From the NCBI GenBank assembly GCA_963833115.1, contig CAWHWS010000002.1:368173-432172 (forward strand): a stretch of DNA of 64,000 nucleotides, written 5' to 3'. Within the stretch, counting starts at the first letter, position 1. Each line of letters begins with the position of its first letter. This stretch comes from an uncultured Alphaproteobacteria bacterium (GTDB lineage: Bacteria > Pseudomonadota > Alphaproteobacteria > Rhodobacterales > Rhodobacteraceae). Of this stretch, positions 10,830-56,019 are shown piece after piece. Under the pieces are notes generated by a model. The model made no database searches, was not told the DNA's origin, and saw nothing but the letters and a program-made list of their open reading frames with translations. A program made the position numbers and the translations under genes.

Positions 10830-10876
10830 AAGTCCAACAGGGAGGTGCCGCGACATGACCCCGTCGCGGCGAAGGG
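10802..10876 (-). ncRNA. sorX: SorX-like 3'UTR-derived small RNA downstream of cenR
   Basis: On the minus strand: 8-bp stem GCCGCGAC/GTCGCGGC (10847-10870), single-stranded anti-SD seed CCTCCCTGTTGGACTT, then GC hairpin plus T6. Same position as R. sphaeroides SorX behind RSP_0847 (from memory); the 5' end is estimated. Confidence 0.7.
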
Positions 10877-10960
10877 TTGGTGCGCCCATCATCGTCCGGG
10901 CGCTGGAACGACTCTAGGGCGAGAAGATTACCGAAGCGTCAACCATGACGGCTGTTGCCC

Positions 10961-37807: not shown

Positions 37808-37875
37808 CCGCCTCTCCTCCTGGGCACGGACGTGTTCCGGGGGACGGCGCGCATCGTCAATCGGACCGTCGCCGT

Positions 37876-37890
37876 TTCAACGTTTTAGAA
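37876..37890. promoter_or_regulatory. Candidate LysR site TTC-N9-GAA in divergent promoter
   Basis: TTCAACGTTTTAGAA, same geometry as the site at 40482-40496. Confidence 0.35.
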
Positions 37891-37992
37891 GCCCTCGTTC
37901 CGATTTCTCGCGTCGGCCCGGAACGCTTGCGGCGCGCCGGCCCGGGAGAACACAACCGTGGGCAGGCGCCACGTCGACGCCAGGGACACGCG

Positions 37993-39513
37993 ATGACCGA
38001 ATCGGCGCGGCGAAGGAGCGGAGGGCGGCGCGAGCGCGTCGCGAAGCGGGCCGCCCCCCCGGTGCACGACCCCTGTCCTCCCGGACAGCCCGGGGGCACG
38101 TATCGCCCGCTCACCGAGCCTCAGCTCGATGCCATCGTCGACACCGCCCTGCGGCTCCTGGAGGAGCTGGGCATGGGCGAGGTGCCCGGCCGGCTGCGCG
38201 CCGACCTGATCGAGGCGGGCGCCGTCGACGCGGGCGACCGAATCCTGATCCCGCGTGCCATGGCGCAAAGGGCCATCGACCGCGCCCCCAAGCGCTTCGT
38301 CCTCCATGGCAGGGATCCGGCGCGCTCGATCGAGGTCGGCGGCGACCGGGTGTATTTCGGGACCGGCGGCGCCGCGGTGCAGACGCTCGATCTCGACACC
38401 GGCCTCTACCGGCCGTCGTCCCTCGCCGACCTGCGGGACTTCACGCGGCTGCAGGACACGCTGGCGAACGTCTCGTGGTTCACGCGCTGCTGCGTGGCGA
38501 CCGACATGCCCACCGATCTGGAGCTCGACGCGAACACGCTCCACGCGCTGCTGGCGAACACCACCAAGCCGATCGCGACGTCCTTCACCACCGCGCTGAC
38601 CGTCCCGCCGCTGCTGGAGATGCTCGACATCGCGGCGGGCGGCGCGGGCAGGTTCGCCGAGCGACCCTTCCTCAAGGTCCATATCAGCCCCGTGATCTCC
38701 CCGCTGCGCTTCGGGGAGGACGCGATCGACGTGCTCTACGCCTGCCTGGACGCGAACATCCCCGTCTCGTGCATCACCGCCGCGCAATCGGGCGCGACCG
38801 CTCCGGCCGCGCTGGCCGGCTTCCTCGCGCAGTCGCTCGCCGAGACCCTCGCGAGCCTCGTGGCGGTGAACGTCATCCGTCCCGGCCATCCGATGGTGTT
38901 CTCGAACTGGCCGCTCGTGATCGACCTCCGCACGGGCGCCTTCGCGGGCGGGGGCGGTGAGATCGCCGTCCTCAACGCGGCCTCCGCGCAGCTCTCGAAC
39001 CATCTGGGCCTGCCCTCGGGCGTCGCCTCCTCGATGACCGACGCCAAGTCGATCGATGCCCAGCACGGGGCCGAGAAGGCGCTGACGGCGCTGGCCGCGG
39101 GGCTCGCCGGGGGGAACCTCGTCTACGAATCGTCGGGCATGACCGCCTCGCTCCTGGGCGCGTCCTTCGAGGCGTTCCTGCTCGACGACGAGATGCACAG
39201 CGCGATCTACCGGATCCTGCGCGGGATCGAGGTCGACGAGACGACGCTGGGTTTCGACACGATCCGCGAGGCGGTGCTGGGCGAGGGTCATTTCCTGGGC
39301 CATCCGCAGACCTATGCCGCGATGGAGCGGGACTACCACTACCCCGTCCTCGCCGACCGCGTCCCGCCCTCGCAATGGGAGGAGGAAGGCGCGCGGGATG
39401 CCTGGTCCCGCGCCCGCGCCCGGGCGCGCCAGATCCTCGCCACCCACCGCCCGGCCTACTTGTCGCCCGAGCAGGACGCGGCGATGCGGGACGTCGCGCC
39501 GCTCAGGGACTGA
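37993..39513 (+). CDS. Non-pyrrolysine trimethylamine methyltransferase (MttB/MtgB) family protein
   Basis: YFGTGGAA, ISPVISPLRFG, GGNLVYESSGM, GEGHFLGHPQT; no in-frame TAG. Confidence 0.9.
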   Translation: MTESARRRSGGRRERVAKRAAPPVHDPCPPGQPGGTYRPLTEPQLDAIVDTALRLLEELGMGEVPGRLRADLIEAGAVDAGDRILIPRAMAQRAIDRAPKRFVLHGRDPARSIEVGGDRVYFGTGGAAVQTLDLDTGLYRPSSLADLRDFTRLQDTLANVSWFTRCCVATDMPTDLELDANTLHALLANTTKPIATSFTTALTVPPLLEMLDIAAGGAGRFAERPFLKVHISPVISPLRFGEDAIDVLYACLDANIPVSCITAAQSGATAPAALAGFLAQSLAETLASLVAVNVIRPGHPMVFSNWPLVIDLRTGAFAGGGGEIAVLNAASAQLSNHLGLPSGVASSMTDAKSIDAQHGAEKALTALAAGLAGGNLVYESSGMTASLLGASFEAFLLDDEMHSAIYRILRGIEVDETTLGFDTIREAVLGEGHFLGHPQTYAAMERDYHYPVLADRVPPSQWEEEGARDAWSRARARARQILATHRPAYLSPEQDAAMRDVAPLRD

Positions 39514-41844: not shown

Positions 41845-42630
41845 CTACCTGACCCCCAGCGCCTCGTCCGCCGGGGCCGCGGCGTCGGCCGACGCCCCTC
41901 CCCAGAGGTCGGCGCGCGCCCTGTCGAGGTCCGCCGCCGTGGTGATCTTGTAGTTCCGCTCGGACCCCTGGACCATCCGGACCGCCATGCCGGCCTCTCG
42001 GGCGACCGCGACGTCGTCCGCGCCGCTGCCGTCATGAGCCGCATGGGCCGCGCGGATCAGCTCGAACGCGAAGCCTTGCGGCGTCTGTGCCCGCCAGAGG
42101 CCGCCGCGCGGGACCGACCCGTCCGCCCAGCCGCCCTTGGCGGACCAGATCGCGTCGATCACCGGCAGCCCCGCGCAGGCGCCGTCGGCCTCCTGGAGCG
42201 CCGAGAGCACGCCTTCGATCACCCAGCGCGGCACGAACGGACGCGCCGCGTCGTGGATCAGGACGAGGTCGGGTCGATGGGCGCGCAGCGCCTCGAGCCC
42301 TCGGCGCACCGACAGGGCGCGGGTCGCGCCGCCCGCGACCGGCTCCAGCGCGCGCGCATCGACGAGCCCGTCGATCGAGCGCGCGCAGAGCACGGCGTCG
42401 TCGGGATGGATCACCGGCAGGACGAACCGCACGGCGTCGACGGCGAGGAACGCCTCGATCGAGCGGCGCAGGGCGCAGACGCCGTCGAGGGGGATGTACT
42501 GCTTCGGGACCTCCCCGCCGAGACGTCGTCCCCGGCCGGCGGCCACGAGCAATGTCGCGACGGAGGGCGGGCGTCCCGGCGCGGGGCTCGGCACGGGGCT
42601 CGGCGCGGGGAGCGCGCGGGGCCTAGTCAA
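41845..42630 (-). CDS. ispD: Stand-alone IspD-family (MEP/polyol-phosphate) cytidylyltransferase
   Basis: AAGRGRRLGGEVPKQY, LIHDAARPF, RAQTPQGF, NYKITT; no IspF domain follows. Confidence 0.82.
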   Translation of the reverse strand: MTRPRALPAPSPVPSPAPGRPPSVATLLVAAGRGRRLGGEVPKQYIPLDGVCALRRSIEAFLAVDAVRFVLPVIHPDDAVLCARSIDGLVDARALEPVAGGATRALSVRRGLEALRAHRPDLVLIHDAARPFVPRWVIEGVLSALQEADGACAGLPVIDAIWSAKGGWADGSVPRGGLWRAQTPQGFAFELIRAAHAAHDGSGADDVAVAREAGMAVRMVQGSERNYKITTAADLDRARADLWGGASADAAAPADEALGVR

Positions 42631-43228
42631 CGGACTGGATGGGCCGGGCGCTGCCGGACCGCTGGCCGGACGGGCGCGCGTGCGGCGGCCGGAAGAGCTG
42701 CGGCGCGAACCAGTCCGGCTCCTCGCCGGCGAAGAGGTCGAGGAAGCCGATCGCCCGGGACGGATCCTCCTCCACGTTCTCGCGAAAGCTCCACCAGGTC
42801 CGCAGGTCCCGGACCGATGGCGCGACGCGCTGCATCCCGTCGAAATCGGCCGAGATCACCAGCCCCCGGACATCGAGGCAGAACGCGACGTAGAGGTGCC
42901 CCTCGGGCCAGAACTGCGCGGGGTCGGCCGCGTCCCCGGGCCCCCGGACGCCGAGCCGGGCCGGCATTCCCACGATCAAGGCGCGCAGCATGAGACCGGC
43001 CGCGAACCCCACATAGGCGCGCTTGTCCCCGATGCTGACGGGCTTCTGCGCCTGAAAATCGGCGAGCCAGGCGGTGAACACGCCGGCGAGCGCCTCGCGG
43101 TCCACGGCGAAGCGATGCCCGGTCTCGGCCTCGATGCGCGCGACCTCGTCCTCGAACGCCCGGACGAACCATCGCAGGCGCTGCGCGGACTTCCGGAACG
43201 GCGTCTCTGGGGCGATCGGCGTCGTCAT
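42623..43228 (-). CDS. Hypothetical protein (201 aa)
   Basis: Good ORF coupled to neighbours; WPEGHLYVAFCL and TWWSFRENVEEDP look conserved; family not recognised. Confidence 0.7.
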   Translation of the reverse strand: MTTPIAPETPFRKSAQRLRWFVRAFEDEVARIEAETGHRFAVDREALAGVFTAWLADFQAQKPVSIGDKRAYVGFAAGLMLRALIVGMPARLGVRGPGDAADPAQFWPEGHLYVAFCLDVRGLVISADFDGMQRVAPSVRDLRTWWSFRENVEEDPSRAIGFLDLFAGEEPDWFAPQLFRPPHARPSGQRSGSARPIQSVD

Positions 43229-43237
43229 CGCGCACCG

Positions 43238-43912
43238 CTATAGATGGTCGGCCAGGGCCTGCAAATAGCGGGCCAGCCCCGCGGCGTCCTCCATCCGGTC
43301 CGGCACGCCGTCCCGCGTGGCCGCCACGAGCGCCGACGAAAGGCCGAGGATCGTCTCCTCCTCGGCCATCCCCGGCGCCCTCGCCGCGAGGAGCCAGAGG
43401 GCGATGGCGATCAGCGCCTGGTCGATCCGGGCCTGTTCGACCCCCCGGTCGGCATCGGCCAGTCCGGGCCTACGGGCGATGATCGCAGACGTGCGGATGT
43501 CGGCGATGAGGCGGGCGGCGCGCTCGGCCGGAGCCCGGCCCGTGAGCGGCCGCGTCGACAATCGTCCCGCGAGCAGCGTCTCGCTCATGAAATCCCCGTG
43601 TCGTCCGCCGGGCAGGTGCTCCCACGCGTAGACGACCACCGTCGCCAGCGTCTCCGGCGCGGCGGCGCGATCCGCCAGCGTGTCGGCGGCCGCACGCACG
43701 GCGCCCGGGTCGATCGGCGCCGCCTTGAGACGCCGTCCGACGGAGTGGACGGCCCGGAGACCCGCTCGGAACCCATCACGGATGGGCTCGGGCAGGAGGG
43801 CGACCGCCGGCTCGATGGTCTCCTCGGTCGCATCGGCCAGCGAGGAGACGCCCCGGAGGGCATCACGGAGCGGCATCTGCAGCGTCGAGAAGAGGTGGGG
43901 CGCCGATCGCAT
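43238..43912 (-). CDS. Hypothetical helical protein (224 aa)
   Basis: ORF in operon between pfkB and the 201-aa gene; family not recognised. Confidence 0.65.
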   Translation of the reverse strand: MRSAPHLFSTLQMPLRDALRGVSSLADATEETIEPAVALLPEPIRDGFRAGLRAVHSVGRRLKAAPIDPGAVRAAADTLADRAAAPETLATVVVYAWEHLPGGRHGDFMSETLLAGRLSTRPLTGRAPAERAARLIADIRTSAIIARRPGLADADRGVEQARIDQALIAIALWLLAARAPGMAEEETILGLSSALVAATRDGVPDRMEDAAGLARYLQALADHL

Positions 43913-43941
43913 GTCGCACTCCGAGGCGGATGACCGAGAGA

Positions 43942-44886
43942 CTATCCCCGATGCGGGGTCGTTGCCATGAAATCCAGCGTCGCCTCGAGCGAGACGACCC
44001 CCGCCTGCGAGCCCAGCCCGGTGGCGTTCTGGGCCGAGGCCGCCTGCCCCAGTCGCAGGCAGTCCGCCATCCGGCGGCCCAGATGCAGGCCGGTGGCGAA
44101 GCCGGCGTTGAAGCAGTCGCCGCAGCCGCAGGTGCACAGCACGTCCACGTCGAAGGCGGGCGAGTCGATCCGCGCGCCCGAGCGGTCGCGCAGCATCGCC
44201 CCCTGCGCCCCGAGCGTCAGGATCACGGCGCCGGCCCCGAGGTCCAGCAGGAAGGCCGCGATGTCGTCGAGATCCGTCAGCCCCGACAGCGCCATCGCCT
44301 CCTCCTCGGAGGGCATGAAGTAATCGGTGTTCGGCAGCAGCGACCGGACCAGGTCCAGGTCGGCGGCGGTAGAGGCGAAGACGTCGAGCGTGGTCGTGAC
44401 GCCCCGGGATCGCGCCTCGGCCAGCACCTCGGCGGTGCGACCCGCGTCCATCCGGTCCATCAGCCCCACGCCGCCGACATGCAGGATGCGCGTGTCCAGC
44501 ACGCTCTCCAACGCGGCGTCGTCCACCCAGAAGCCCGCCGTCGCGCCGCGCTTGTGCAGCGCCGGGCGCGCGCCGTCCGGGCGCGTGGTCACGATGCTCG
44601 AGGAGGTCGAGAAGCCCGGGCAGCGCTGCATGTGCCGCGTGTCCACGCCGAAATCGCCCAGCCGGCGCAGCACCCAGTCGCCCATCAGGTCCTCGCCCAC
44701 CCCGCCGACCGCCTGCACGCTGAGGCCGTGCCTGGCTGCGACGATGGCGGCCGATCCGGCCGCGCCGGACACCGCGAGCGCGAAATCCTCCACGAAATGG
44801 GTGCCGCCGCCGGCCGGTATCTCGGTCACCGGGCGGCACAGCGCGTCGAACGTGTAGAACCCCATCGAGGTGTAGTCGAAGGTCAT
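43942..44886 (-). CDS. PfkB/ribokinase-family carbohydrate kinase
   Basis: GAAGSAAIVAAR, FMPSEEEA, ILTLGAQG, TCGCGDCFNAGF anion-hole motif. Confidence 0.92.
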   Translation of the reverse strand: MTFDYTSMGFYTFDALCRPVTEIPAGGGTHFVEDFALAVSGAAGSAAIVAARHGLSVQAVGGVGEDLMGDWVLRRLGDFGVDTRHMQRCPGFSTSSSIVTTRPDGARPALHKRGATAGFWVDDAALESVLDTRILHVGGVGLMDRMDAGRTAEVLAEARSRGVTTTLDVFASTAADLDLVRSLLPNTDYFMPSEEEAMALSGLTDLDDIAAFLLDLGAGAVILTLGAQGAMLRDRSGARIDSPAFDVDVLCTCGCGDCFNAGFATGLHLGRRMADCLRLGQAASAQNATGLGSQAGVVSLEATLDFMATTPHRG

Positions 44887-44893
44887 GGCATCC

Positions 44894-45943
44894 TCAGCGT
44901 AGCCGCTCGCCGCTGGCATGGTCGAAGAGGTAGAGCCGGGCGGGATCGAAGCGCACGCTCTGCGTGCCGCCCAGCTCCGCGCGGTAGGCGCGGTCGGCCT
45001 TGATCTCGACCAGCGTCTCTCCGGTCCGCAGCGTGAGGAACGTCATGTCGCCGGTGGGCTCCAGCCCGTAGATCTCGCCCGTCAGGTCGCCCCCGCCCGG
45101 CGATACCGCGCAGTCCTCGGGGCGCACGCCGAGCGTGACCGGCCCCGCGTGCCGGCTCGGCAGTCCCGCGACCTCGACCCCCGGCGCGGAGAAGCGACCG
45201 CCCTCCAGCCGCCCCTCGATCAGGTTCATGGGCGGCGATCCGATGAAGTTCGCGACGAACGTGTTGGCCGGATCGGTGTAGATGTCGTCGGGCGTGCCGA
45301 TCTGCTGTATCCGCCCGGCGCGCATGACGACGATCCGGTCCGCCAGGGTCATCGCCTCGATCTGGTCGTGGGTGACGTAGACGGTGGTGATGCGCAGCTC
45401 GCGCTGGATGTGCTTGATCTGCACCCGCATCGCCTGGCGCAGCTTGGCGTCCAGGTTCGAGAGCGGCTCGTCCATCAGGAAGACCTGCGGCTGGCGCACG
45501 ATGGCGCGGGCCAACGCCGCGCGCTGGCGCTGCCCGCCCGAGAGCGCGCCGGGCTTGCGATCCAGGTAGTCGGCCAGCTCCACCAGCCCGGCGGCGCGGC
45601 GCACCTGCGCGTCCTGCTCGGCGCGCGGCACGCCGCGCATCCTGAGCGGGAAGCGGATGTTCTCGTAGACGGTCATGTTCGGGTAGAGCGCGTAGCCCTG
45701 GAACACCATCGCCACGTCGCGGTCGCGCGGATCGACCTCGTTCATCAGCTCGCCGTCCATGCGGATCTCGCCCGCCGTCGGCTCCTCCAGGCCCGCGATC
45801 ATCCGCATCGTCGTGGTCTTGCCGCAGCCCGAAGGGCCGAGGAAGACGACGAACTCCTCGTCGGCGATGTCCATGTCGACGTCCCGCACGCCGTGGACGT
45901 CGCCCCAGCTCTTCTGGATGCCCGAAAGCTCGATCCGCGCCAT
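44894..45943 (-). CDS. CUT1 carbohydrate ABC transporter ATP-binding protein
   Basis: GPSGCGKTT, LSGGQRQR, FLMDEPLSNLDAKLR. Confidence 0.96.
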   Translation of the reverse strand: MARIELSGIQKSWGDVHGVRDVDMDIADEEFVVFLGPSGCGKTTTMRMIAGLEEPTAGEIRMDGELMNEVDPRDRDVAMVFQGYALYPNMTVYENIRFPLRMRGVPRAEQDAQVRRAAGLVELADYLDRKPGALSGGQRQRAALARAIVRQPQVFLMDEPLSNLDAKLRQAMRVQIKHIQRELRITTVYVTHDQIEAMTLADRIVVMRAGRIQQIGTPDDIYTDPANTFVANFIGSPPMNLIEGRLEGGRFSAPGVEVAGLPSRHAGPVTLGVRPEDCAVSPGGGDLTGEIYGLEPTGDMTFLTLRTGETLVEIKADRAYRAELGGTQSVRFDPARLYLFDHASGERLR

Positions 45944-45945
45944 CG

Positions 45946-46788
45946 CTACCCCTTCACCGCGCCCATGGTCAGCCCGCGGCTCAGGTGCTTCTGGATCGCG
46001 ACCACCACGAGGAACACCGGCAGGAACGCGAGGAAGGCGACCAGCGCGATGGCGTTGTAGATCACGCCGTCCGAGCCGCCGGTGAAGTTCGCGAGCGCGA
46101 CCGACATCGTGTAGGCGTCCGGCGTCGAGGCGATCAGCAGCGTGAACAGGAACTCGTTGATCGCGAAGATCATCGCGATGACCGCCGCGGTGATGATGCC
46201 GGGCAGGATCGCCGGCACGATGATCTCCCACAGGATGCGCAGGTCCGACGCGCCGTCGGTGCGCGCCGCGTCCTCGAGCTCGTGCGGGATGTCGAGCATG
46301 TAGGACCGGATGATCCACGTCACGAAGGAGAGGTTGATGGCGGCGTAGATCAGCATCAGGGCCCAGATCGTGTCGAGGAGGCCCATGTTGCGGAACAGGA
46401 AGAAGATCGGGATCGCCACGATCGCCGGCGCCATCATCCGCGTCGACAGGATGTAGAACCCGATGTCGTCGCGCCCCCGGTACTCGTAGCGCGCCAGGGA
46501 GTAGGCCGCCGGGATCGCGAGGACGAGGTCGATCACCACCGATCCGAGGACCGCCAGGACCGAGTTGCGCAGGTACTTCGCCATCGGCCAGTCCGACCAG
46601 ATCATGTGCCAGGCGTCGAGCGAGAGCGTGGGCAGGTAGATCGGGCGCGGGGTGATGATCTCGGTCCGCGGGCGCAGGCCGATCGAGAGGAACCACAGCA
46701 CCGGCACCAGGCAGAACAGCGCCCATCCTCCCAGGATCAGGTAGCGCAGCGCGCGCGACTCGCCGCGCCGGCGTCTGGCGGACGCCAT
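45946..46788 (-). CDS. Carbohydrate ABC permease (MalG-like)
   Basis: ELEDAARTDGA EAA motif, six TM segments. Confidence 0.95.
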   Translation of the reverse strand: MASARRRRGESRALRYLILGGWALFCLVPVLWFLSIGLRPRTEIITPRPIYLPTLSLDAWHMIWSDWPMAKYLRNSVLAVLGSVVIDLVLAIPAAYSLARYEYRGRDDIGFYILSTRMMAPAIVAIPIFFLFRNMGLLDTIWALMLIYAAINLSFVTWIIRSYMLDIPHELEDAARTDGASDLRILWEIIVPAILPGIITAAVIAMIFAINEFLFTLLIASTPDAYTMSVALANFTGGSDGVIYNAIALVAFLAFLPVFLVVVAIQKHLSRGLTMGAVKG

Positions 46789-46791
46789 GCC

Positions 46792-47709
46792 CTAGTCCCT
46801 CGACGAGACGAAGGCGCGCTTCACCACGAGCTGCGCGACGAGGATGGTGATGACCAGCATGACGACCGAGGCCGCCGAGGCGTAGCCGAAGTCGAAGAAC
46901 TTGAAGCCCGTCCGGTAGATGAAGTAGCTGATCGTCTCGGTCCCGAAGGCCGGGCCGCCCTTGGTGATGATGAAGACGTTGGCGAACATCGTCGTGATGT
47001 CGATCCCCCGCAGGATCAGGGCGACCGCGATCACCGGCTTCATCAGGGGCAGCGACACGTTCCAGAAGATCGCGAACCAGGACGCGCCGTCGAGCCGGGC
47101 GGCCTCCTCCACCTCCTCGTCCTGGCCCTGCAGGGCGGCGACGAAGATGATGAAGAGGAACGGCGTCCACTGCCAGACGTCCGCCGCGATCAGCAGCGCC
47201 CGGCTGCCCCAGATCGAGGACTGGATCGCGAGGTTCCCATCGATCAGCCCGAGCCGCATGAGCACGTCGGCGAAGACGCGCCCGTCCAGCACCGCCAGCT
47301 TGTAGATGAAGGCGACCGCCGAGGGCATGAACAGCATCGGCACCAGGAACGCGATCCGCCAGCCGCGCACCCACGGATCGCGGTAGGCGTGATAGGCCAG
47401 CGTCAGCGCGATCAGGCACTGCAACGTGAGGGCGATCGAGCCGATCACGAACGTGTTCCAGAGCGCGCCCCAGAACTGCGCGTCGCCCATCAGCTTGGCG
47501 TAGTTGGCGAAGCCGACCGGGTTCCATGGCCCGAACTTCACCGCGTGGAAGCTCTGCACGATGGCGTAGACGCCGGGGTAGAGCGTGATCCCGAAGAGGT
47601 AGATCACCGCCGGCGCGACCAGCAGGTAGGGGAACGCCGCCCGCATCCGCCTTGAGCGCCGCCGCCGGACGGGGCGCGCGGCCGCGCCGGGTGCCGCGAG
47701 GTCGCTCAC
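46792..47709 (-). CDS. Carbohydrate ABC permease (MalF-like)
   Basis: WQWTPF, EEAARLDGA, GGPAFGTET. Confidence 0.95.
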   Translation of the reverse strand: MSDLAAPGAAARPVRRRRSRRMRAAFPYLLVAPAVIYLFGITLYPGVYAIVQSFHAVKFGPWNPVGFANYAKLMGDAQFWGALWNTFVIGSIALTLQCLIALTLAYHAYRDPWVRGWRIAFLVPMLFMPSAVAFIYKLAVLDGRVFADVLMRLGLIDGNLAIQSSIWGSRALLIAADVWQWTPFLFIIFVAALQGQDEEVEEAARLDGASWFAIFWNVSLPLMKPVIAVALILRGIDITTMFANVFIITKGGPAFGTETISYFIYRTGFKFFDFGYASAASVVMLVITILVAQLVVKRAFVSSRD

Positions 47710-47725
47710 GCGGCGGCGCTCCGGC

Positions 47726-48466
47726 TCACTCGGCCATCCCCGCGATCTCGCCGGCGACGGCCTCGCCCAGGTCGCGGTTGCCCTGCACCAGGAGGTGGAT
47801 GCCGTCCGGGCCCACGTCCTCCTTGCCCACGACCGTCGCCGCGTCGAAGAAGGCCGCCCCCGCCGCCTTGGCGATGGCCTCGTAGACCTCCGGCAGCGCC
47901 TCGATCTTCTCCTGCGAGCCGGCGAATATCTCCGCCGCGCCGGGGTCGATCTCGTCGCCGAGCGGCGGCGGGCTGATGACGAGCACTCGGGGCGGCTCCT
48001 CCTCGTAGGTGTACCAGCCGAGCCCGCTGCCCCGCTGCACGATGTCGATGAGCTCGCCCATGCCCAGCCCGATCTCCAGCGGGGAGCGGTCGAGATAGGT
48101 CTTGGTGTCGTTGGTCCCGAGCATGATCACCACGACGTCCAGCGGCGCGTGGCTCATCAGGGCGGAGTCGAGGTACTCCGCCCCGTTCATGAGGCCCGGC
48201 GCCGATCCGTCCTCCACGTTGGTCGTGCGCCCGCTCAGGCCCTCGGTCACGACGTGGTAGCCCTCGCCCAGCGCCGCCTGGAGGATCCGGGGCCAGCGGT
48301 CGGCCTCGGCGTGGCGCTCGGTCGGGGTGATCGGGTCCTTGGGCACCCAGCCCCAGGTGATGGAATCGCCGAAGACCATGACGTTGACGGGGTCCTCCGC
48401 CTCCTGGGCGGCGGCGGGGACGGCGAGCGCCGCGGCGAGCGCGGCCGTGAGGATCGTGCGGGTCAT
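47726..48466 (-). CDS. Secreted SGNH/GDSL hydrolase
   Basis: Signal peptide, FGDSITWG, EGLSGRTT, MLGTNDTK, DGIH catalytic motifs. Confidence 0.92.
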   Translation of the reverse strand: MTRTILTAALAAALAVPAAAQEAEDPVNVMVFGDSITWGWVPKDPITPTERHAEADRWPRILQAALGEGYHVVTEGLSGRTTNVEDGSAPGLMNGAEYLDSALMSHAPLDVVVIMLGTNDTKTYLDRSPLEIGLGMGELIDIVQRGSGLGWYTYEEEPPRVLVISPPPLGDEIDPGAAEIFAGSQEKIEALPEVYEAIAKAAGAAFFDAATVVGKEDVGPDGIHLLVQGNRDLGEAVAGEIAGMAE

Positions 48467-48521
48467 CGGAACCTCCGGGGGCGGGGGGACGGACGGCGCG
48501 CCATGCGCCGCCCGTTCGGAT

Positions 48522-50081
48522 TCAGAACGGCAGGTCCTTGCCCTCGCCGACATAGAGCCCCGGCGCGGCCTGGGCGTACTCGACCGGATCGGCGCCCTGG
48601 TAGAACCCGTTCTGCGACATGATCTCCCGCACCGCCGCGGCGGCGTTGTCGAGCGCCTCCTGCCCGGTGATCTGCCCGACCACGGCGCGGTTGATCTCGT
48701 TGCCGATGGCCTGCTCGATCGGGAACGCGCCCGGCAGCCGCGGCGAGCACCAGGCGTGCTCGAGGCTGTCGGACCACACCTTCGCCGGCTGGCTGACCTG
48801 CTGCAGGTTGGGGTTGGTCAGGACCGAGCGGTAGCCCGGCGCCACGCCGTTGGCGTTGGCCTCGTTCATCGCCATGATCGACGCGGTCGTGAGGAACGCC
48901 AGCATCAGGAACGCCCCCTCGGGGTTCTGCGCGCTGGCCGCGACGCAGGAGGTGGAGCCCGCGATGTTGGGCGGCGCGAAGCGGCCCCCCTCGATGCGGG
49001 GCTCGTAGATGGTCGTGAACTGATCGACGATCTGGCTCTGGTCGGGGCGCATCGCCTGCGTGCCCGAGTCCTGCCAGGAGATGTTGGTCGCGACCTGCCC
49101 GCCGAGCCACGCGGCGCGGTTCTCGGGCCAGCCGGCACCGGCGAAGCCCTCGTTGGCATTGGGCGCCAGCGCCAGGATGATCTCCATCCCCTTCATGCCC
49201 TCGGGCCCGTTGAAGATCGGCTCCCAGCCCTCGTCGAAGAGCATCATGCCGGCCTGCGCGGCGATGTGCTCCCACGTGTAGGTCGACCAGAACCCGGGCG
49301 CGGCCATCATGCCCACGCCCGACACGCCCGGCCGCACGCGGTTCAGCTCGCCGGAGACCCGGATCAGCTCGTCATAGGTCGGGATCGTGGAGACCCGGTC
49401 GACCTCCCCGCCCAGGACCTCGCGCATGAGGTCGGTGCGGACGTGGACCATCTGCACGTCGCAGTCGAACGGAATGCCGTACATCTTGCCGTTGAAGAAG
49501 CCGTAGTTGAGCCGGTACGTATCGTAGAAGTCGTCGAGCGGCAGGTTCCACTTCTCGGCGTAGTCGTCGAGCTCGGCGAGGAAGCCGGGCGCCGCGAAAT
49601 CCCCCATCCAGGGCGAGAAGAACTGCAGCGCGTCGAAGCTCGCGTTGCCCGAGATGAACTCCGTCAGCGCCTTGTCGTAGAAGCTGTCGTCGGGGATCGG
49701 CACCAGCTCGACGGTGATGCCGGAGAGCTCCTCGAACGGGGTCAGGCCCTCCGCGGCGGATTCCGCGTCGGCCGCGCCGATGGCGAAGCGCACGGTGGTG
49801 CCGCCCAGCTCGGAGCGGACCTTCTCCCAGTCGACGGTGCGGATCCAGTCCCTCGCCGGATCCCACATCCTGTCCTCGTCGGTCAGCCCGTAGAGCTCGC
49901 GGTAGTCGGCGCGCACGTACTGCTCGATCGAGATGCGGTCGAGGACGCTCTGCGGATCGGGAAGCTGCGACTGCGCGAACGCGGGCATCGCCAGCCCGCC
50001 GCCGGCGCCGGCCGCGATCAGGCCGCCGGCCGAGCTTCGCTGCAGGAACGACCGTCTGGATAGGTGTCCGCCGATCTTCAT
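48522..50081 (-). CDS. Tat-exported carbohydrate ABC substrate-binding protein
   Basis: SRRSFL twin-arginine signal; GIPFDCD; heads the CUT1 operon. Confidence 0.88.
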   Translation of the reverse strand: MKIGGHLSRRSFLQRSSAGGLIAAGAGGGLAMPAFAQSQLPDPQSVLDRISIEQYVRADYRELYGLTDEDRMWDPARDWIRTVDWEKVRSELGGTTVRFAIGAADAESAAEGLTPFEELSGITVELVPIPDDSFYDKALTEFISGNASFDALQFFSPWMGDFAAPGFLAELDDYAEKWNLPLDDFYDTYRLNYGFFNGKMYGIPFDCDVQMVHVRTDLMREVLGGEVDRVSTIPTYDELIRVSGELNRVRPGVSGVGMMAAPGFWSTYTWEHIAAQAGMMLFDEGWEPIFNGPEGMKGMEIILALAPNANEGFAGAGWPENRAAWLGGQVATNISWQDSGTQAMRPDQSQIVDQFTTIYEPRIEGGRFAPPNIAGSTSCVAASAQNPEGAFLMLAFLTTASIMAMNEANANGVAPGYRSVLTNPNLQQVSQPAKVWSDSLEHAWCSPRLPGAFPIEQAIGNEINRAVVGQITGQEALDNAAAAVREIMSQNGFYQGADPVEYAQAAPGLYVGEGKDLPF

Positions 50082-50146
50082 GATGTGGTTCCTCCCTTGG
50101 ATCCGACGCCGTCCGATCCCGCCCGGATCGTGATGCCCGGTGCGGC

Positions 50147-50274
50147 GTGAACATATGGACTGCTCCCGTCACGTTTGTACGCCGCCGGCATCCTGTCAAG
50201 CGATGGATACGCCGCGCTGCGGCGAGACCGTCGCGGGGCGCCGGCGATCATGACCGCTGGACGGTGAACAATTG
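50147..50274. promoter_or_regulatory. Divergent promoter with two GTGAACAWWTG direct repeats and a minus-strand TTGACA
   Basis: GTGAACATATG at 50147-50157, GTGAACAATTG at 50264-50274, TGTCAA at 50194-50199. Confidence 0.5.
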
Positions 50275-50332
50275 CGTTGGTACGACTGCAAGGGTTCAGG
50301 ACCACCGGGACGCCGCCCAACGGAGGAGCGCC

Positions 50333-51664
50333 ATGTCATCCAACGTCGCCCTGACCGGGCTCGCCCGCGACCTCGCGGCCCGTGCGGATGCCGGACGGCC
50401 GGTGCGGATCGGCCTCGTCGGCTCGGGCGAGATGGGGACCGACATCGTCACCCGCGCCGGGCTGATGGACGGGGTCGAGGTCGCCGCCATCGCCGACATC
50501 GACCCCGCCGCCGCGCATCGCGCGGTGGAGATCGCGCGGCGCGCGGGGGGGTGCAGCCGCGACGCGCCGGACGCGGGCGCCGTGAACGCCGCGATCGAGG
50601 CCGGGCTGACCGCCGTGACGACCGCCGACGCGATGCTGGACTCCGGCCTGATCGACGTGGTGATCGACGCGACCGGCGTGCCCGCGGTCGGCGCCGAGAT
50701 CGGGCTCGCGGCGATGGAGCGGGGCAAGCACCTGGTGATGATGAACGTCGAGGCCGACGTGACCATCGGCGTCTATCTCGCGGCCGAGGCCGAGCGCCTG
50801 GGCGTGGTCTACTCCCTCGGCGCGGGCGACGAGCCGTCCTCCTGCATGGAGCTGATCGAGTTCGCCTCCGCGATGGGCCATCGCATCGTGTGTGCGGGCA
50901 AGGGCAAGAACAATCCCCTGAACTTCGACGCCCTGCCGGACGACTACGCCGACGAGGCCGCCGCCCGGCACATGAACCCCCGGATGCTGGTGGAGTTCGT
51001 GGACGGATCGAAGACGATGGTGGAGATGGTCGCCATCGCCAACGCGACCGGGCTGGTCCCCGACGTGGACGGCATGCACGGCCCCGCCGCCGGGCCGAAG
51101 GACCTGTCCCGCGTGCTGGTCCCAGAGCGGGACGGCGGCATCCTGTCGGGCGCCGGCCGGGTGGACTACTCGGTGGGCCAGGGCCTCGCGCCCGGCGTCT
51201 TCGTCGTGATCGAGGCGGAGCATCCTCGCATCCGCGAGCGCCTGCGCGACCTCAAGATGGGCGACGGGCCCTACTTCACGTTCATCCGCCCCTACCACCT
51301 GACCTCCCTGGAGGTTCCCCTGACCTGCGCGCGCGCGGTGCTCCACGGCCGCGCGGACATGGTGCCGATGGCGCGGCCGGTGGCCGAGGTCGCGGCCGTC
51401 GCCAAGCGCGACCTCGCCCCCGGCGACACGCTCGACCTGCTCGGCGAGTACACCTACCGCGCCTGGGCGATGGAGGCCGGCCGCGCGCGCGGCCTCGGCG
51501 CGCGGCCGGCGGGGCTCCTGCCCGGCTGCACCGTGACGGCGGCGATCGCGAAGGGCGAGCTCCTGACGGACCGCAACACCGCCCTGCCCCCGGGCTCGCG
51601 CATCGCCGCCCTGCGCGCCCGCCAGGACGCCATGGTGCACGGCCGGGAGCCCGCCCATGCCTGA
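50333..51664 (+). CDS. Type II DXP reductoisomerase (DRL/DXR-II; NAD-binding homoserine-dehydrogenase-like domain plus C-terminal SAF domain)
   Basis: [84 protein letters not shown]: long stretches match Brucella abortus DRL as I recall it, including the GDE, KGK and KTMVE metal/substrate residues. Confidence 0.85.
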
Positions 51665-52667
51665 CGGCCCCGACGCCAACCTGCCCTACGCGGTCCGCGC
51701 CTACGCGCCCGAGCGGCTGGTGGAGGCCCTGCGCCGGATGCGCCTCATCCGCGCCTTCGAGGAGGGCGCCGAGGAGAGCTACACGCGCGGCCTGATCCAC
51801 GGGACCATGCACCTGAGCATCGGCCAGGAGGCGTCGGCGGTCGGCTCGTGCATGGCGCTGACGGACGAGGACAAGATCACCTCGACCCATCGGGGCCACG
51901 GGCACTGCATCGCCAAGGGCGCCGACCTCGGCCGGATGTTCGCGGAGTTCTTCGGCAAGGAGACGGGCTATTGCAGGGGCCGGGGCGGCTCGATGCACAT
52001 CGCCGACGTGGCCAAGGGCAATCTCGGCGCCAACGGCATCGTCGGCGGCGGCCTGCCCATCGCGGTCGGGGCCGCGCTCTCGGCCAGGCGGCTCGGGACG
52101 GGGGCGGTCACGGTCTGCTTCTTCGGCGACGGGGCGGGCAACGAGGGCGCGTTCCACGAGGCGCTGAACATGGCGTCGATCTGGCGGCTGCCGGTCGTCT
52201 TCGTCTGCGAGAACAACCTCTACGGCATGTCCACGTCGACCGAGCGTTCGACCGCGGTGCGCCATGTCGCCGACCGGGCCGCCGCGTACTCGATGCCGGG
52301 CGTCACCGTCGACGGCAACGACTTCTCGGCCGTGACCGAGGCCGTCGACGCCGCCGTCGCCCGCGCGCGGGCCGGCGACGGGCCGAGCCTGGTCGAGAAC
52401 CTGACCTATCGCTGGCGCGGGCACTCCAAGTCCGACCGCAACCGCTACCGAACCAAGGAGGAGATCGCCGAATGGCAGGGGCGCGACCCCATCGCGCGGA
52501 TGACGGACATGCTGCGCGCCCACGGGATCGTCGATGACGACGCCGTGGCCGGGATCGAGGCCGAGGTGGCCGAGACGGTCGCCGCCGCCATCGCCTTCGC
52601 GAAGGACAGCCCCGCGCCCGACACCGCCGAGGCCGCGCGCGACGTCGACACCGGGGCGGCCGCGTGA
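51657..52667 (+). CDS. acoA: TPP-dependent dehydrogenase E1 alpha (AcoA-like)
   Basis: [36 protein letters not shown] motif, YRWRGHS. Confidence 0.88.
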
Positions 52668-53674
52668 ACGCGCCCGCCGGGGCGATGCTCCGCGAGCTGA
52701 GCTATGCCGAGGCGATCCGCGAGGCGATGGACATCGCGCTCGGCGAGGACCCGCGCGTGATCCTGATGGGCGAGGACATCGGCGTCTACGGCGGCGCCTT
52801 CGGCGTGACCGGCGACCTGGTGGCCAAGTACGGCGAGGAGCGGGTGATGGACACGCCCATCTCCGAGCTGGGCGGCGCCGGGGTGGCGGTGGGCGCGGCG
52901 CTCACGGGGCTGCGCCCGATCTTCGAGTTCCAGTTCTCCGACTTCGCGGCGCTGGCGATGGAGCAGATCGTCAACCAGGCCGCCAAGCTGCGCTACATGC
53001 TGGGCGGCGCGGTGTCCGTGCCCCTGGTGATGCGCTTTCCGGCCGGGTCCGGGACCGGCGCGGCCGCGCAGCATTCCCAGAGCCTCGAGGCGTGGTTCGG
53101 CCACGTGCCGGGCCTGAAGGTGGTGCAGCCCTCCACCCCCGAGGACGCCAAGGGCCTCCTGCTGGCCGCGCTGGACGATCCCGACCCGGTGATGATCTTC
53201 GAGCACAAGATCCTCTACAAGATGCGCGGCCCCGTGCCCGAGGGGCGCTACGTGACGCCCATCGGCCGCGCGGCGGTGCGGCGCGAGGGGCGGGATCTGA
53301 CGATCGTGGCCACCGCGATCATGGTGCACAAGGCGCTGGAGGCCGCCGGCACGCTGGCCGAGGACGGCATCGAGGCCGAGGTGATCGACCTGCGCACCGT
53401 GCGCCCGATGGACCGGGAGACGGTGCTGGCCTCGGTCCGTCGCACGGGCCGTCTGCTCGTGGTCTACGAGGGGGTCAAGACGCTGGGCGTGGGCGCCGAG
53501 GTCAGCGCGATGGTCGCCGAGAGCGACGCGTTCGACTTCCTCGACGCGCCCATCGTGCGGCTCGGCGGGGCCGAGAGCCCGATCCCCTACAATCCCGAGC
53601 TCGAGCGCGCGGTCGTCCCGCAGGTGCCGGACATCCTCGAGGCCGCGCGGGCCTTGGCACGGGGCCGCGTCTGA
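52664..53674 (+). CDS. acoB: TPP-dependent dehydrogenase E1 beta (AcoB-like)
   Basis: [37 protein letters not shown]. Confidence 0.88.
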
Positions 53675-55026
53675 TGCCGACCGAGGTCATCATGCCCAAG
53701 GTCGACATGGACATGGCGACCGGCCGCATCGTGGCCTGGCATTGCGAGGACGGGGCGCCGGTGGAGAAGGGCATGCCCCTCTTCGACATCGAGACCGACA
53801 AGGCCGCGATGGAGATCGAGGCGCCCGCGAGCGGGCTGCTCCGCCACCGCGTCCCAGAAGGGACCGAGCGGCCCATCGGCGCGCCGGTCGCCTGGCTCTA
53901 CGCGCCGGACGAGCCGGTCGGAGACGCGCCGCCGGATGGCGAGGGGGCCGCGGCCGGCCCCGGACCGTCGCGGAGCGGCGCCCGGCCCGGCGGCGCGCCG
54001 GCCGACGATGCCCTGGCGGATGCGGGGACGGCCGCGCCCCCGGTCGCGGACGGGCCGACCTCGTCCCATCCGCCGGACCGCCCGCGCGCCACGCCCAGAG
54101 CCAGGCGCCGCGCCCGGGAGGCGGGGATCGACCTCGCGGGGCTGCCTGGCACGGGCCCGAGGGGGCGCGTCCAGGCGCGCGACGTCCCCGGCGCCCGGCA
54201 CGAGGATCCCGAGGCGACCGAAGGCCGGAGGTCCCGGGCGCGCGCGCCCGCGGCCCCCGCCGGGACGCCGGCCGCGGACGGTCCCCTGCGCGTCCTCCGC
54301 AGCGGCGCCGGCACCGGCACGCCCGTCGTCCTGCTGCACGGGTTCGCCTCCGACGCCGCCATCTGGACGCCCCTGGAGGAGCACCTCGACCGCCCCCCCC
54401 TGATCCGGATCGAGCTGCCGGGCCATGGCGGCTCGCCGCGCCGCGCCCCGGCGACCTTCGCGGCCCTGGCCAAGGCGCTGCGCGAGGCCTTCGACGACCT
54501 GCACCTCGAGGCCGCGCACCTGGTCGGGCACAGCCTGGGCGGCGCCCTCGCCCTCGCGATCGCCGACACCCGTCCCAGGTGCGTCCGCAGCGTCAGCCTG
54601 ATCGCGCCCGCCGGGCTGGGCCCGCAGGTCAACGGCGAGGCGCTGTCGGGCATCTGCCGCGCCGCCCGGGCCGAGAGCCTCGCGCCCTGGCTGCGCGTGC
54701 TGGTCGCCGACGAGCGGATCGTGACCGACGGCTACGCCCGGGCCGCCATGGCCGCACGGCGCGATCCGGACCTGCGCGCGGCGCAGGCCGCCATGGCGGA
54801 CGCGCTCTTCCCCGACGGCGTCCAGGCCTTCGACCTCCGCGCCGCCCTGCGCCGGCTGGAGGTGCCGTCCCGCATCGTCTGGGGGAAACGCGACCGGATC
54901 CTGCCATGGCGGCAGGCCCTGTGCGCGGGCGGCGGCACCGCGCTGCACCTCTTCGAGGGGATCGGGCACATGCCGCAGATCGAGGCGCCGGAGGCGATCG
55001 GCCGCCTCCTCGCGGCCGGATTCTGA
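53674..55026 (+). CDS. acoC: AcoC-type E2: lipoyl domain, subunit-binding domain and alpha/beta-hydrolase acetyltransferase
   Basis: [10 protein letters not shown] lipoyl Lys, [36 protein letters not shown]. Confidence 0.85.
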
Positions 55027-55038
55027 GGCGGACGGCCC

Positions 55039-56019
55039 GTGGACCAGGACATCGCCCTGGGGGCCCGGGGCATCTCCGGCCGCCACCGGTCGCTGCGCGT
55101 GCGGGCCGCGTGGCTCTACCATGTCGAGGGGATGACCCAGACCGAGGTGGCGGCGACCCTGGGCGTGAGCCGCGTCATGATCACGCGCCTGCTGGCCGAA
55201 GCCCGCGCGCGGGGCGAGGTCGTCATCCGCGTGCGCTCGGAGATCGCCCCGATCGTGGAGCTGGAACGCGACCTCGAGGGGCGCTTCGCCCTGCGCCGCG
55301 CGGTCGTCGCGCCCTTCGAGGCCATGGGGGGCGATCCGGTCCGGTCGATCGCCGCGGCCGCCGGCGCGCACGTCTCGGGGCTGATGGCCAACAACCTCAC
55401 GATCGGCGTCGGCTGGGGGCGCACGCTGCAGGCGATGCTGCCGCACCTCGAGGGCCGGGCGCTGAACGGCGTGCGCGTCGTGTCCCTGCTGGGCGGGATC
55501 GCGCAGGCGCGCCGCTTCAATCCGGCCGAGTTCGCCTGGCAGTTCGCGGAGCTGTTCGACGCCGAGGGCTACCTCATCCCCGCGCCCGCGATCGTCGACT
55601 CGCCCAGGACGCGCCATGCTCTGCTGGAGCACTGCGGGCTCGACCAGATATTCGAGATGGCGGCGACCTGCGACGTCGCTCTGCTGTCCTGCGGCGGGAT
55701 CGACGCGCTGACGACCTCCTACAGGGTCGGCTACGTCTCGGAGGCCGAGCGGCAGTCGATGATCCGGGCGGGCGTCGTCGGCGACGTGCTCTACAACTTC
55801 CTCGATGCCGAAGGGCGGCTCGTCGATCATCCGGTGAACGAGCGCGTGATCGGCATGTCGCCCGCCCGCCTCGGCCGCGTCGAGAACAAGATCCTCGTCT
55901 CCGGCGGACGGGAGAAGCTCGACATCCTGCGCGGCGCCCTGAAGTCGGTGCGGCCGCAGACCCTGATCACCGATGAGGTCACCGGCCGATCGCTGATGGA
56001 CGGACCGGACGGCGACTGA
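55039..56019 (+). CDS. SorC/DeoR-family sugar-phosphate-binding transcriptional regulator
   Basis: AAWLYHVEGMTQTEVAATLGVSRVMITRLL HTH; GVGWGRT; AGVVGDVL. Confidence 0.92.
   Translation: MDQDIALGARGISGRHRSLRVRAAWLYHVEGMTQTEVAATLGVSRVMITRLLAEARARGEVVIRVRSEIAPIVELERDLEGRFALRRAVVAPFEAMGGDPVRSIAAAAGAHVSGLMANNLTIGVGWGRTLQAMLPHLEGRALNGVRVVSLLGGIAQARRFNPAEFAWQFAELFDAEGYLIPAPAIVDSPRTRHALLEHCGLDQIFEMAATCDVALLSCGGIDALTTSYRVGYVSEAERQSMIRAGVVGDVLYNFLDAEGRLVDHPVNERVIGMSPARLGRVENKILVSGGREKLDILRGALKSVRPQTLITDEVTGRSLMDGPDGD

Follow-up and report, generated by a model that had tools for sequence, protein, structure and literature searches.

A Putative Bacterial Locus for 2-C-Methyl-D-Erythritol Utilization That Joins DXR-II to a TPP-Dependent E1/E2 Complex

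A 64,000-nucleotide stretch of DNA from an uncultured alphaproteobacterium of the family Rhodobacteraceae (contig CAWHWS010000002.1, positions 368,173 to 432,172; hereafter the window, in whose own coordinates all features are given) carries 14 genes at 41845-56019 that gene calling and Pfam and NCBIfam searches resolve into two tightly packed divergent operons. One of these is headed by the gene for DXR-II (also known as DRL), the enzyme type that in Brucella links DXP (1-deoxy-D-xylulose 5-phosphate) to MEP (2-C-methyl-D-erythritol 4-phosphate), and continues with genes for a thiamine pyrophosphate (TPP)-dependent E1, an AcoC-type E2, and a SorC-type regulator; the other encodes a binding protein-dependent importer, a PfkB-family kinase, and IspD. 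Judged from sequence and gene context, the locus probably serves the breakdown and salvage of 2-C-methyl-D-erythritol (ME) or of a compound very similar to it; ME would be converted via MEP and DXP to acetyl-CoA and glyceraldehyde 3-phosphate (GAP), with a salvage branch through IspD. This linkage is found again and again in four bacterial phyla, and on that ground the cluster probably works the first part of the MEP pathway in reverse; the comparisons described here support the reverse-MEP interpretation that a first-pass annotation of this DNA had put forward.

In the proposed pathway, ME would be imported by a twin-arginine translocation (Tat)-type binding protein together with a CUT1 ATP-binding cassette (ABC) transporter, and the PfkB kinase would phosphorylate it to MEP. 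DXR-II would then act against its biosynthetic direction, turning MEP and NADP+ into DXP and NADPH, after which the E1alpha/E1beta-E2 complex, completed by an E3 from the host, would oxidatively cleave the methyl-acyloin DXP to acetyl-CoA and GAP and so pull the unfavourable DXR step. Part of the MEP would be diverted into isoprenoid synthesis by IspD. Expression would be controlled by the SorC-type regulator acting on a TGAAC-N24-GTTCA palindrome between the operons, from which a sugar phosphate, MEP or DXP, would release it. ME is a plausible nutrient: under stress, plants and microbes export 2-C-methyl-D-erythritol 2,4-cyclodiphosphate (MEcDP), from which ME and ME-glucosides are formed (PMC11192765).

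DXR-II at the Head of a Putative Catabolic Operon

The DXR-II gene (50333-51664, plus strand; PF21135, 226 bits) encodes a protein that matches Brucella DRL along its entire length (structures 3UPL and 3UPY; E value 1e-176), with 63% identity by alignment. Two groups of residues, in B. abortus numbering, were compared: K191, K193, T229, H250, and G121, which belong to substrate and fosmidomycin anchoring, and R320, Y322, E174, and F178, which belong to the dimer cavity. All nine are identical in the window protein, and alignment shows the same signature residues in cluster-linked copies from three phyla. In a survey of the family, K191, K193, and T229 were described as anchoring fosmidomycin or the substrate, further residues were recognized as typical of DXR-II, and the true enzymes were set apart from the look-alike families DLO1 and DLO2 (PMC3847144). 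The identity assigned in the first-pass annotation is thus borne out by the profile score, the match to Brucella DRL, and the signature residues.

Eleven members of the DXR-II clade have been verified by complementation of an Escherichia coli dxr strain; Mesorhizobium loti and Ochrobactrum anthropi each carry two paralogues, both of which complement (PMC3847144). On the basis of its sequence, the window enzyme is expected to interconvert DXP and MEP. More distant DXR-II relatives, at less than 60% identity and not established as true DXR-II, were also seen on plasmids of Listeria, Ligilactobacillus, and Deinococcus.

Conservation of the Linkage in Alphaproteobacteria

Genome scans with the window protein and with the Brucella protein as separate queries yielded 155 alphaproteobacterial loci, of which 126 are non-redundant and have enough flanking sequence for comparison by tblastn of the window proteins and family clustering of called genes. 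A lack of the gene combination in other DXR-II genomes had been named beforehand as a refuting outcome, and the hypothesis survived this test: E1alpha and E1beta lie directly downstream of DXR-II in 94 of the 126 loci. An arrangement that recurs across more than 100 loci is far beyond chance. These DXR-II-E1alpha-E1beta loci occur in Rhodobacterales, Rhizobiales, Stappia, Pannonibacter, and one Geminicoccales metagenome-assembled genome (MAG). E2 usually follows, either of the AcoC type or as a classical 2-oxoacid_dh E2; the classical form replaces the AcoC type in Rhizobiales and Firmicutes, with or without E3, and in Sinorhizobium, Ensifer, and Rhizobium an E3 gene (lpdA) comes after E2. A SorC regulator is present in most of the alphaproteobacterial clusters.

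In Sinorhizobium, Rhizobium, Phyllobacterium, and Aminobacter, the cluster is often borne on a plasmid or chromid, which suggests horizontal mobility of the pathway. The PGAP labels of a complete plasmid-borne copy are generic, namely 'NAD(P)H-dependent oxidoreductase', 'TPP-dependent dehydrogenase E1', 'sugar kinase', and 'hypothetical protein'.

Recurrence in Other Phyla

Distant DXR-II relatives were retrieved from among 1.8 billion representative proteins, and 80 loci were collected around a Clostridia-type representative; 45 of these have at least 4 kb on both sides. The Firmicutes operon, its gene families confirmed with Pfam, runs SorC-GutM-SrlA-SrlE-SrlB-DXR-II-E1alpha-E1beta-E2-E3-HPr-EI, sometimes with a HAD phosphatase gene between DXR-II and E1alpha. 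The glucitol-type phosphotransferase system (Gut-PTS) adjoins DXR-II in 35 of these 45 loci, and E1alpha and E1beta are present as well in 13. Through a third query, MAGs of Chloroflexia, Caldilineaceae, and Dormibacterota were found to carry the order IspF-GutM-PTS-DXR-II-E1alpha-E1beta-(E2)-IspD-like-SorC. IspD-like genes flank the clusters of Chloroflexia, Dormibacterota, and Firmicutes, and a SorC-family regulator also heads those of Firmicutes and Chloroflexia. In four phyla, two non-homologous systems for polyol import and phosphorylation are therefore joined with DXR-II and one and the same E1, and MEP-pathway genes repeatedly lie beside them.

In Maledivibacter and Geosporobacter (loci L170, L191, and L193), the whole SorC-PTS-DXR-II-E1alpha-E1beta-E2-E3-HPr cluster sits between the housekeeping genes ispD and ispF, which are otherwise adjacent.

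A Distinct E1 Subfamily

Directly behind DXR-II in the window follow, all on the plus strand, the genes for E1alpha (51657-52667), E1beta (52664-53674; NF006667, 390 bits), and an E2 with lipoyl, E3-binding, and alpha/beta-hydrolase domains (53674-55026; PF00364, PF02817, and PF12697). The E2 passes the AcoC model NF011457 (353 bits against a cutoff of 307), and E1alpha falls under the equivalog cutoff for pyruvate dehydrogenase (PDH) E1alpha (TIGR03182, 376.4 against 393.85 bits). For comparison, three operons were used that their context, with genes for AcoR, AcoX, butanediol dehydrogenase, or acetoin reductase, assigns to acetoin or butanediol metabolism (L254 from Acinetobacter, L256 from Enterococcus faecium, and L259 from Mycetohabitans); no gene for AcoR, AcoX, or acetoin reductase/butanediol dehydrogenase was found in the window.

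DXR-II-linked E1beta proteins share 55-64% identity across phyla, compared with 44-55% to E1beta from aco operons, and the E1alpha identities follow the same trend more weakly; the window E1alpha is 54% identical to that of the Geosporobacter cluster. The positions that are invariant in 21 DXR-II-linked E1alpha proteins and different in all three aco proteins form three motifs: HGTxHL in the linked proteins versus PGFxHLY in aco, YGMS versus (G/A)E(G/A)T, and GHS(K/R)SD versus GHFEGD. The third reads GHSKSD in the window protein, and a THRGHGH motif is common to both groups. On alignment to human PDHA1, the last two motifs fall in the YGMGTS and GHSMSD loops; these are the two phosphorylation loops lining the channel to the active site, and the His is catalytic. 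Beside the His-Ser of this loop, linked E1alpha proteins carry Lys or Arg where human PDHA1 has Met, and they have Met and Lys at the positions of two Glu residues in aco E1alpha. The basic residue at this place is peculiar to the linked E1, and these features would be consistent with a substrate that carries an anionic tail, as DXP does with its phosphate. By these sequence criteria, the linked E1 proteins represent a distinct subfamily across three phyla.

The AcoC-type E2, and an E1alpha that scores close to the PDH model, would also be accounted for by an ordinary operon for acetoin/2,3-butanediol or pyruvate dehydrogenase that happens to adjoin a housekeeping DXR-II gene and an unrelated sugar transporter. 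This explanation is nevertheless very improbable: the adjacency is kept across four phyla with overlapping stop and start codons, aco operons verified by context carry AcoR, AcoX, or butanediol dehydrogenase together with a different E1alpha signature, PTS, kinase, and SorC partners make no sense for acetoin, and the palindrome is specific to cluster-linked DXR-II. A plain acetoin dehydrogenase was accordingly rejected on gene context and E1 signatures.

The complex could also be biosynthetic, with E1alpha/E1beta acting as an alternative DXP synthase that joins pyruvate and GAP and feeds DXR-II as a second entry into the MEP pathway. According to PMC3424233, deletion of dxs in E. coli can be made good by PDH E1 mutants that provide DXP; E1beta is weakly similar to DXS models, and many genomes appear to be without Dxs (PMC10663253). 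Yet the conserved lipoyl E2, often joined by E3, argues for oxidative acyl transfer and not carboligation, biosynthesis needs no transporters, kinases, PTS, or sugar-phosphate regulators, and the module is present in Firmicutes that are without the rest of the MEP pathway (PMC3847144). Given the conserved E2 and E3, this role was rated unlikely, with a probability as slight as that of an ordinary acetoin or pyruvate dehydrogenase.

Uptake and Phosphorylation Modules

If the pathway starts from ME, a means of import and a single phosphorylation step would have to precede DXR-II, and the left operon has candidates for both. Its first gene, on the minus strand, encodes an SBP_bac_1 solute-binding protein (48522-50081; PF01547, 103 bits), for which the first-pass annotation had proposed Tat export; the protein family and a twin-arginine (RR) signal were recovered, and the score with the TAT model is borderline (16.6 against a cutoff of 16.7). 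Two MalFG-type permeases, one UgpA/MalF-like (46792-47709; weak NCBIfam match to UgpA) and one MalG/UgpE-like (45946-46788; weak NCBIfam matches to GlcU, MalG, and UgpE), and a UgpC/MalK-type ATPase (44894-45943; NF008653, 430 bits; ABC_tran and OB_MalK/TOBE domains), all on the minus strand, complete a CUT1 importer. The binding protein is 71-82% identical in about 36 loci, and the permeases at 45946-46788 and 46792-47709 are 79-91% and 64-87% identical, respectively, in related loci. The nearest solved binding proteins bind sugars (E values of 1e-13 to 1e-16), and one of them, 4RYA, was deposited as a sorbitol-binding protein. The kinase gene (43942-44919, minus strand) encodes a PfkB-family sugar/polyol kinase with the PF00294 domain (130 bits). 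The binding protein and the kinase are proposed to be an ME binder and a methylerythritol 4-kinase, respectively.

Sugar-transporting PTSs are unusual in Alphaproteobacteria. Three different, interchangeable front ends adjoin DXR-II-E1alpha-E1beta: a CUT1 ABC transporter with PfkB, a CUT2 (ribose-type) ABC transporter with PfkB, and a glucitol-type PTS. Among 86 loci with DXR-II and E1alpha, PfkB occurs in 30 and the Gut-type PTS in 17, and the two never occur together, as would be expected if each supplies the single phosphorylation step of the pathway. The sorbitol/glucitol PTS is the one system reported to import ME, and was held responsible for ME transport into Salmonella (Testa 2004, as cited in PMC3994034 and PMC4082188).

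A full glucitol-type PTS (GutM, EII-GUT, and EIIBC-GUT) was seen in loci L103, L105, L116, L121, and L142 from Mesorhizobium, Shinella, and related Rhizobiales. The Rhizobiales PTS genes are divergent from genes for a HAD phosphatase and unk1, one of two proteins of the cluster that match no Pfam or NCBIfam family (examples at L142:5279-6277 and L116:17703-18140). In other loci, a Zn-dependent alcohol dehydrogenase and a GlpD/EryB-like FAD dehydrogenase adjoin DXR-II (L072:7277-8260 and L043:17187-18872; also L039, L054, L060, and L146), which hints at further tetritol-like substrates feeding the same pathway.

The front ends also bear on the possibility of salvage at the DXP node, in which imported 1-deoxy-D-xylulose would be phosphorylated to DXP by the kinase, DXR-II would run forward to MEP, IspD, and isoprenoids, and E1/E2 would burn surplus DXP. 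Such a scheme uses DXR-II in its thermodynamically favoured and proven direction, has IspD within the same operon set, and shares its E1 step with the ME pathway. It is quite unlikely all the same. Gut-type PTSs and the nearest solved relatives of the binding protein generally handle sugars and polyols, not free ketoses, and the only PTS-Gut link reported in the two papers that cite Testa 2004 is with ME. DXR-II would moreover be dispensable for catabolism under this scheme, yet it is the first gene and translationally coupled to E1alpha in 94 of the 126 loci, and it persists where there is no MEP pathway for it to supply (PMC3847144).

Regulation

The last gene of the right operon (55039-56019, plus strand) encodes a SorC/DeoR-type regulator, of a type that senses sugar phosphates, with a PF04198 domain (173 bits) and an N-terminal helix-turn-helix (HTH). 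The first-pass annotation had placed a single shared promoter between the operons; the divergent arrangement was confirmed, and a scan of the 251-bp intergenic region for the sigma-70 consensus and for terminators gave no match, which leaves the shared promoter without support. The region does contain the palindrome TGAAC-N24-GTTCA (50265-50298, no strand assigned), 35 bp upstream of the DXR-II start, which is the sole match in the 64-kb window when spacings of N22-26 are scanned (0.00 expected). At least 37 alphaproteobacterial loci, including Rhizobiales without a divergent transporter, carry this palindrome 35-100 bp upstream of DXR-II, and none of the stand-alone DXR-II loci does. The palindrome is a good candidate for the operator of the SorC-type regulator.

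Evidence Weighing Against the Proposed Pathway

Several observations weigh against a pathway from ME through DXP as proposed here. The first is thermodynamic: the DXR equilibrium favours MEP, and reverse flux would thus depend on coupling to an irreversible step. Moreover, where a cluster-linked DXR-II is the sole DXR, a co-transcribed complex that consumes DXP would drain the biosynthetic pool. The complex itself is a second concern. The first-pass annotation had described it as acetoin dehydrogenase-like, which holds for the AcoC-type E2; E1 belongs to a separate subfamily that is not typical AcoA, and in the two active-site loops the linked E1 is PDH-like and not Aco-like, and we know of no E1 of this family that accepts DXP.

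In about 10 Firmicutes loci, a class-II fructose-bisphosphate (FBP)-type aldolase, a TIM-like protein, and a UPF0047 (YjbQ-like) protein replace E1alpha/E1beta, E2, and E3, a variant that does not fit simple DXP cleavage and that the model leaves unexplained. The aldolase variant suggests that the product of DXR-II is processed there by a second, different path, or that these loci use another substrate. Thirty of the 86 loci with DXR-II and E1alpha have no recognizable transporter in the flanks retrieved. Within the alphaproteobacterial clusters, IspD orthologues occur only in L001 and L032 and, more weakly, in L131 (3-4 of about 100). The window gene, the last of the left operon (41845-42630, minus strand; alternative start at 42552), does encode a stand-alone IspD (PF01128, 183 bits; TIGR00453, 186 bits against a cutoff of 181.3, a marginal pass); its identity as annotated in the first pass therefore stands, and the gene is accessory within Alphaproteobacteria.

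The secreted GDSL/SGNH esterase of the left operon (47726-48553, minus strand, start possibly 48466; PF13472, 74 bits; signal-peptide-like N-terminus) is by its distribution an accessory insertion and not part of the core. No orthologue was found in the first 80 related loci, and the only GDSL relative beside a cluster, at 39% identity, lies after E2 in a Hyphomicrobiales MAG (L131, from about position 10019 onward). For unk1 and unk2, searches gave no Pfam or NCBIfam match and no significant fold in the Protein Data Bank (PDB) with Foldseek, using AF2 models with pLDDT values of 85.7 and 81.9. Metagenome runs that match the locus are exclusively DNA runs from sediment, rock, and hypolith, with no RNA run among them. 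Finally, every locus was ascertained through a DXR-II search, and the frequency of the E1 subfamily apart from DXR-II thus lies outside the counts given here.

In the aldolase-type loci, DXR-II stands in the Gut-PTS operon (L186:9501-11586; also L190, L192, L196, L203, L220, L223, L230, L232, and L233). Among the loci fetched, the window is the only one with a GDSL/SGNH esterase between the binding protein and permease genes, where the enzyme may provide a de-esterification step for an acylated substrate.

The most serious of the rival explanations keeps the same architecture and changes the substrate, which would be a different polyol of the 1-deoxy or methyl-branched kind, for example an isomeric 2-C-methyl-tetritol, a 1-deoxy-pentitol, or a 6-deoxy-hexitol of the type of L-fucitol or L-rhamnitol. 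In that case the DXR-II homologue would be a polyol-phosphate dehydrogenase, and E1/E2 would cleave a 1-deoxy-2-ketose phosphate to acetyl-CoA and an aldose phosphate. No equivalog model for the kinase or the binding protein scores above its cutoff (for the PfkB kinase, every NCBIfam equivalog model lies far below), which leaves room for this rival; Gut-type PTSs take several polyols, the EryB/GlpD-like FAD dehydrogenase and Zn-dependent alcohol dehydrogenase of some clusters suggest a broader tetritol/polyol range, and the Firmicutes variants with a downstream aldolase imply other products. On the other side, the DXR-II signature and the substrate-anchoring residues are invariant in all cluster-linked copies, members of the clade complement dxr, including both paralogues in two species (PMC3847144), and the repeated co-localization with ispD and ispF in three phyla points specifically to MEP. 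A different polyol is therefore unlikely, though less so than the other rivals, and ME or a very close analogue remains the preferred substrate.

Origin and Significance of DXR-II

The distribution of DXR-II has resisted explanation, and a 2026 review found "no defining pattern" in it. Functional DXR-II has been reported from Chloroflexus, which has only the mevalonate route, and from Finegoldia, in which neither isoprenoid pathway is present, and Anaerococcus also carries DXR-II without either pathway; in alphaproteobacteria that bear DXR-II, DXR-I has preferentially been lost (PMC3847144). A primarily catabolic role would account both for this patchy distribution and for the presence of DXR-II in bacteria without the MEP pathway.

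Stand-alone DXR-II genes are a minority scattered across the DXR-II similarity tree, and one set of loci shows how they may have arisen. In Phyllobacterium phragmitis and P. salinisoli, the gene order is fam43, fam44, DXR-II, E1alpha, E1beta, E2, fam45, and in Brucella and Ochrobactrum the same fam43/fam44/fam45 flanks surround DXR-II alone (L100 and L109 compared with L082, L086, L087, and L090). Since the flanks are shared and only Phyllobacterium has E1alpha, E1beta, and E2, these genes appear to have been lost from the syntenic site in the Brucella lineage.

Taken one step further, it is about an even bet that DXR-II is primarily the MEP dehydrogenase of a widespread and hitherto unrecognized ME utilization pathway in Alphaproteobacteria, Firmicutes, Chloroflexota, and Dormibacterota. 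Cleavage, the committed step, would then be carried out by a new TPP/lipoyl 'DXP dehydrogenase (acetyl-transferring)' with its own E1 subfamily. In Brucella, Bartonella (the latter outside the loci compared), and lineages like them, the catabolic enzyme would secondarily have been taken over for biosynthesis once DXR-I was lost, and E1/E2 would have been lost later.

In the full-text literature searched, neither a route for the catabolism of ME or DXP nor any connection of DXR-II with an acetoin dehydrogenase (E1) complex was found described, in agreement with the earlier remark that no described pathway of this kind was known; the DXR-II family paper contains no genomic-context analysis (PMC3847144). 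The components belong to known families and a polyol utilization operon is a familiar type of locus; what we rate as new is the predicted enzyme activity and the reinterpretation of an enzyme family. If true, the pathway would break down an intermediate of isoprenoid synthesis that is set free by plants and microbes during oxidative stress, linking MEcDP/ME export to bacterial carbon foraging, and phosphorylated 1-deoxy-ketoses would be a new substrate class for complexes of the 2-oxoacid/acetoin dehydrogenase type. It would also give a physiological reason for the scattered distribution of DXR-II, left unexplained in the 2013 family survey and the 2026 review, and would recast DXR-II in pathogens of the Brucella type as an enzyme recruited from catabolism, a point that bears on how targets of fosmidomycin-type inhibitors are read. 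Every step is directly testable, as ME, MEP, and DXP are commercially available and cluster-bearing strains are culturable; such strains include Sinorhizobium americanum CCGM7 (on plasmid A), S. fredii NGR234 (on pNGR234b), Roseobacter litoralis Och 149, Pannonibacter phragmitetus DSM 14782, and, for the Gut-PTS type, Acetobacterium carbinolicum DSM 2925.

Gene Calling, Accessory Genes, and Flanking Region

With about 72% G+C across the window, plain lists of open reading frames (ORFs) are swamped by spurious frames. Genes were therefore called from GC content by codon position (GC3), manual translation, and a suffix-score caller, which agreed on the 14 genes at 41845-56019, and protein families were assigned with Pfam and NCBIfam profile searches. 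Every gene listed in the first-pass annotation was recovered at its coordinates. Neighbouring genes overlap or lie at most 29 nt apart, with a possible exception for IspD if its start is at 42552.

Two genes between those for IspD and the PfkB kinase, both on the minus strand, encode the helical proteins unk1 (42623-43228, 201 aa) and unk2 (43238-43912, 224 aa). The former has 509 relatives, of which all named ones are labelled 'hypothetical protein', and it stands beside CUT1, CUT2, and PTS cluster types alike; unk2, with 29 relatives, is less widely conserved.

The flanks are unrelated to the cluster and comprise betaine/dimethylglycine genes, a LysR gene, and lpxK/kdtA-like and miaB-like genes. 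At 35402-39513, a dimethylglycine/sarcosine dehydrogenase-like protein with DAO and GCV_T domains is encoded divergently from an MttB-family methyltransferase, adjoining the LysR regulator; these genes probably form a module for the demethylation of glycine betaine, with no relation to the cluster. Farther away, 10802-10877 on the minus strand matches the Rfam family of the small RNA SorX (singlet-oxygen resistance RNA X) with 64 bits against a gathering score of 46.6. The SorX family was described in Rhodobacter, which suggests that the host is probably a Rhodobacterales member of very high G+C.

Comparison With Known Systems

One known system with the same metabolic logic is the gut/srl operon (PTS-Gut, SrlD, GutM, and a regulator). 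The order GutM-SrlA-SrlE-SrlB followed by a dehydrogenase recurs in the clusters of Firmicutes, Chloroflexota, and some Rhizobiales, and the sequence of import, phosphorylation, and oxidation of a polyol phosphate is that of the window. The window differs in having an ABC transporter and PfkB in place of the PTS and DXR-II in place of SrlD, a short-chain dehydrogenase/reductase (SDR); its product would be cleaved by a TPP/lipoyl complex, whereas that of the gut operon enters glycolysis as fructose-6-phosphate. The erythritol loci of Brucella and Rhizobium (EryA-D, with the SorC-type EryD) likewise serve the use of a tetritol and combine ABC import with a kinase, a dehydrogenase for the polyol phosphate, and a repressor of the SorC family, and some related DXR-II clusters carry an EryB/GlpD-like dehydrogenase. 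Here, however, the window kinase is of the PfkB and not the FGGY family, the dehydrogenase is a different one, isomerases are absent, and the proposed end products are acetyl-CoA and GAP instead of erythrose-4-phosphate.

With AcoABC(L), the complex of the window shares a TPP-dependent heterotetrameric E1, the THRGHGH motif, an AcoC-type lipoyl E2, and, as proposed here, the oxidative cleavage of a methyl-acyloin to acetyl-CoA and an aldehyde. It departs from that system in its E1alpha loops (GHSKSD and YGMS, compared with GHFEGD and (G/A)E(G/A)T in aco), in its partners, which are polyol transport, phosphorylation, and DXR-II in place of AcoR, AcoX, and butanediol dehydrogenase, and in its proposed substrate, DXP, which is phosphorylated. 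DXS and the methylthioadenosine (MTA)-isoprenoid shunt also tie DXP to central metabolism, through TPP chemistry or an alternative route; both make DXP, whereas the window complex is proposed to destroy it oxidatively and to capture the C2 unit as acetyl-CoA. Finally, the DRL of Brucella abortus (Sangari 2010; 3UPL and 3UPY) belongs to the same family and clade as the window DXR-II. The Brucella enzyme stands alone and is biosynthetic, whereas that of the window heads a SorC-regulated operon together with E1alpha/E1beta and E2 and is proposed to run in the reverse direction.

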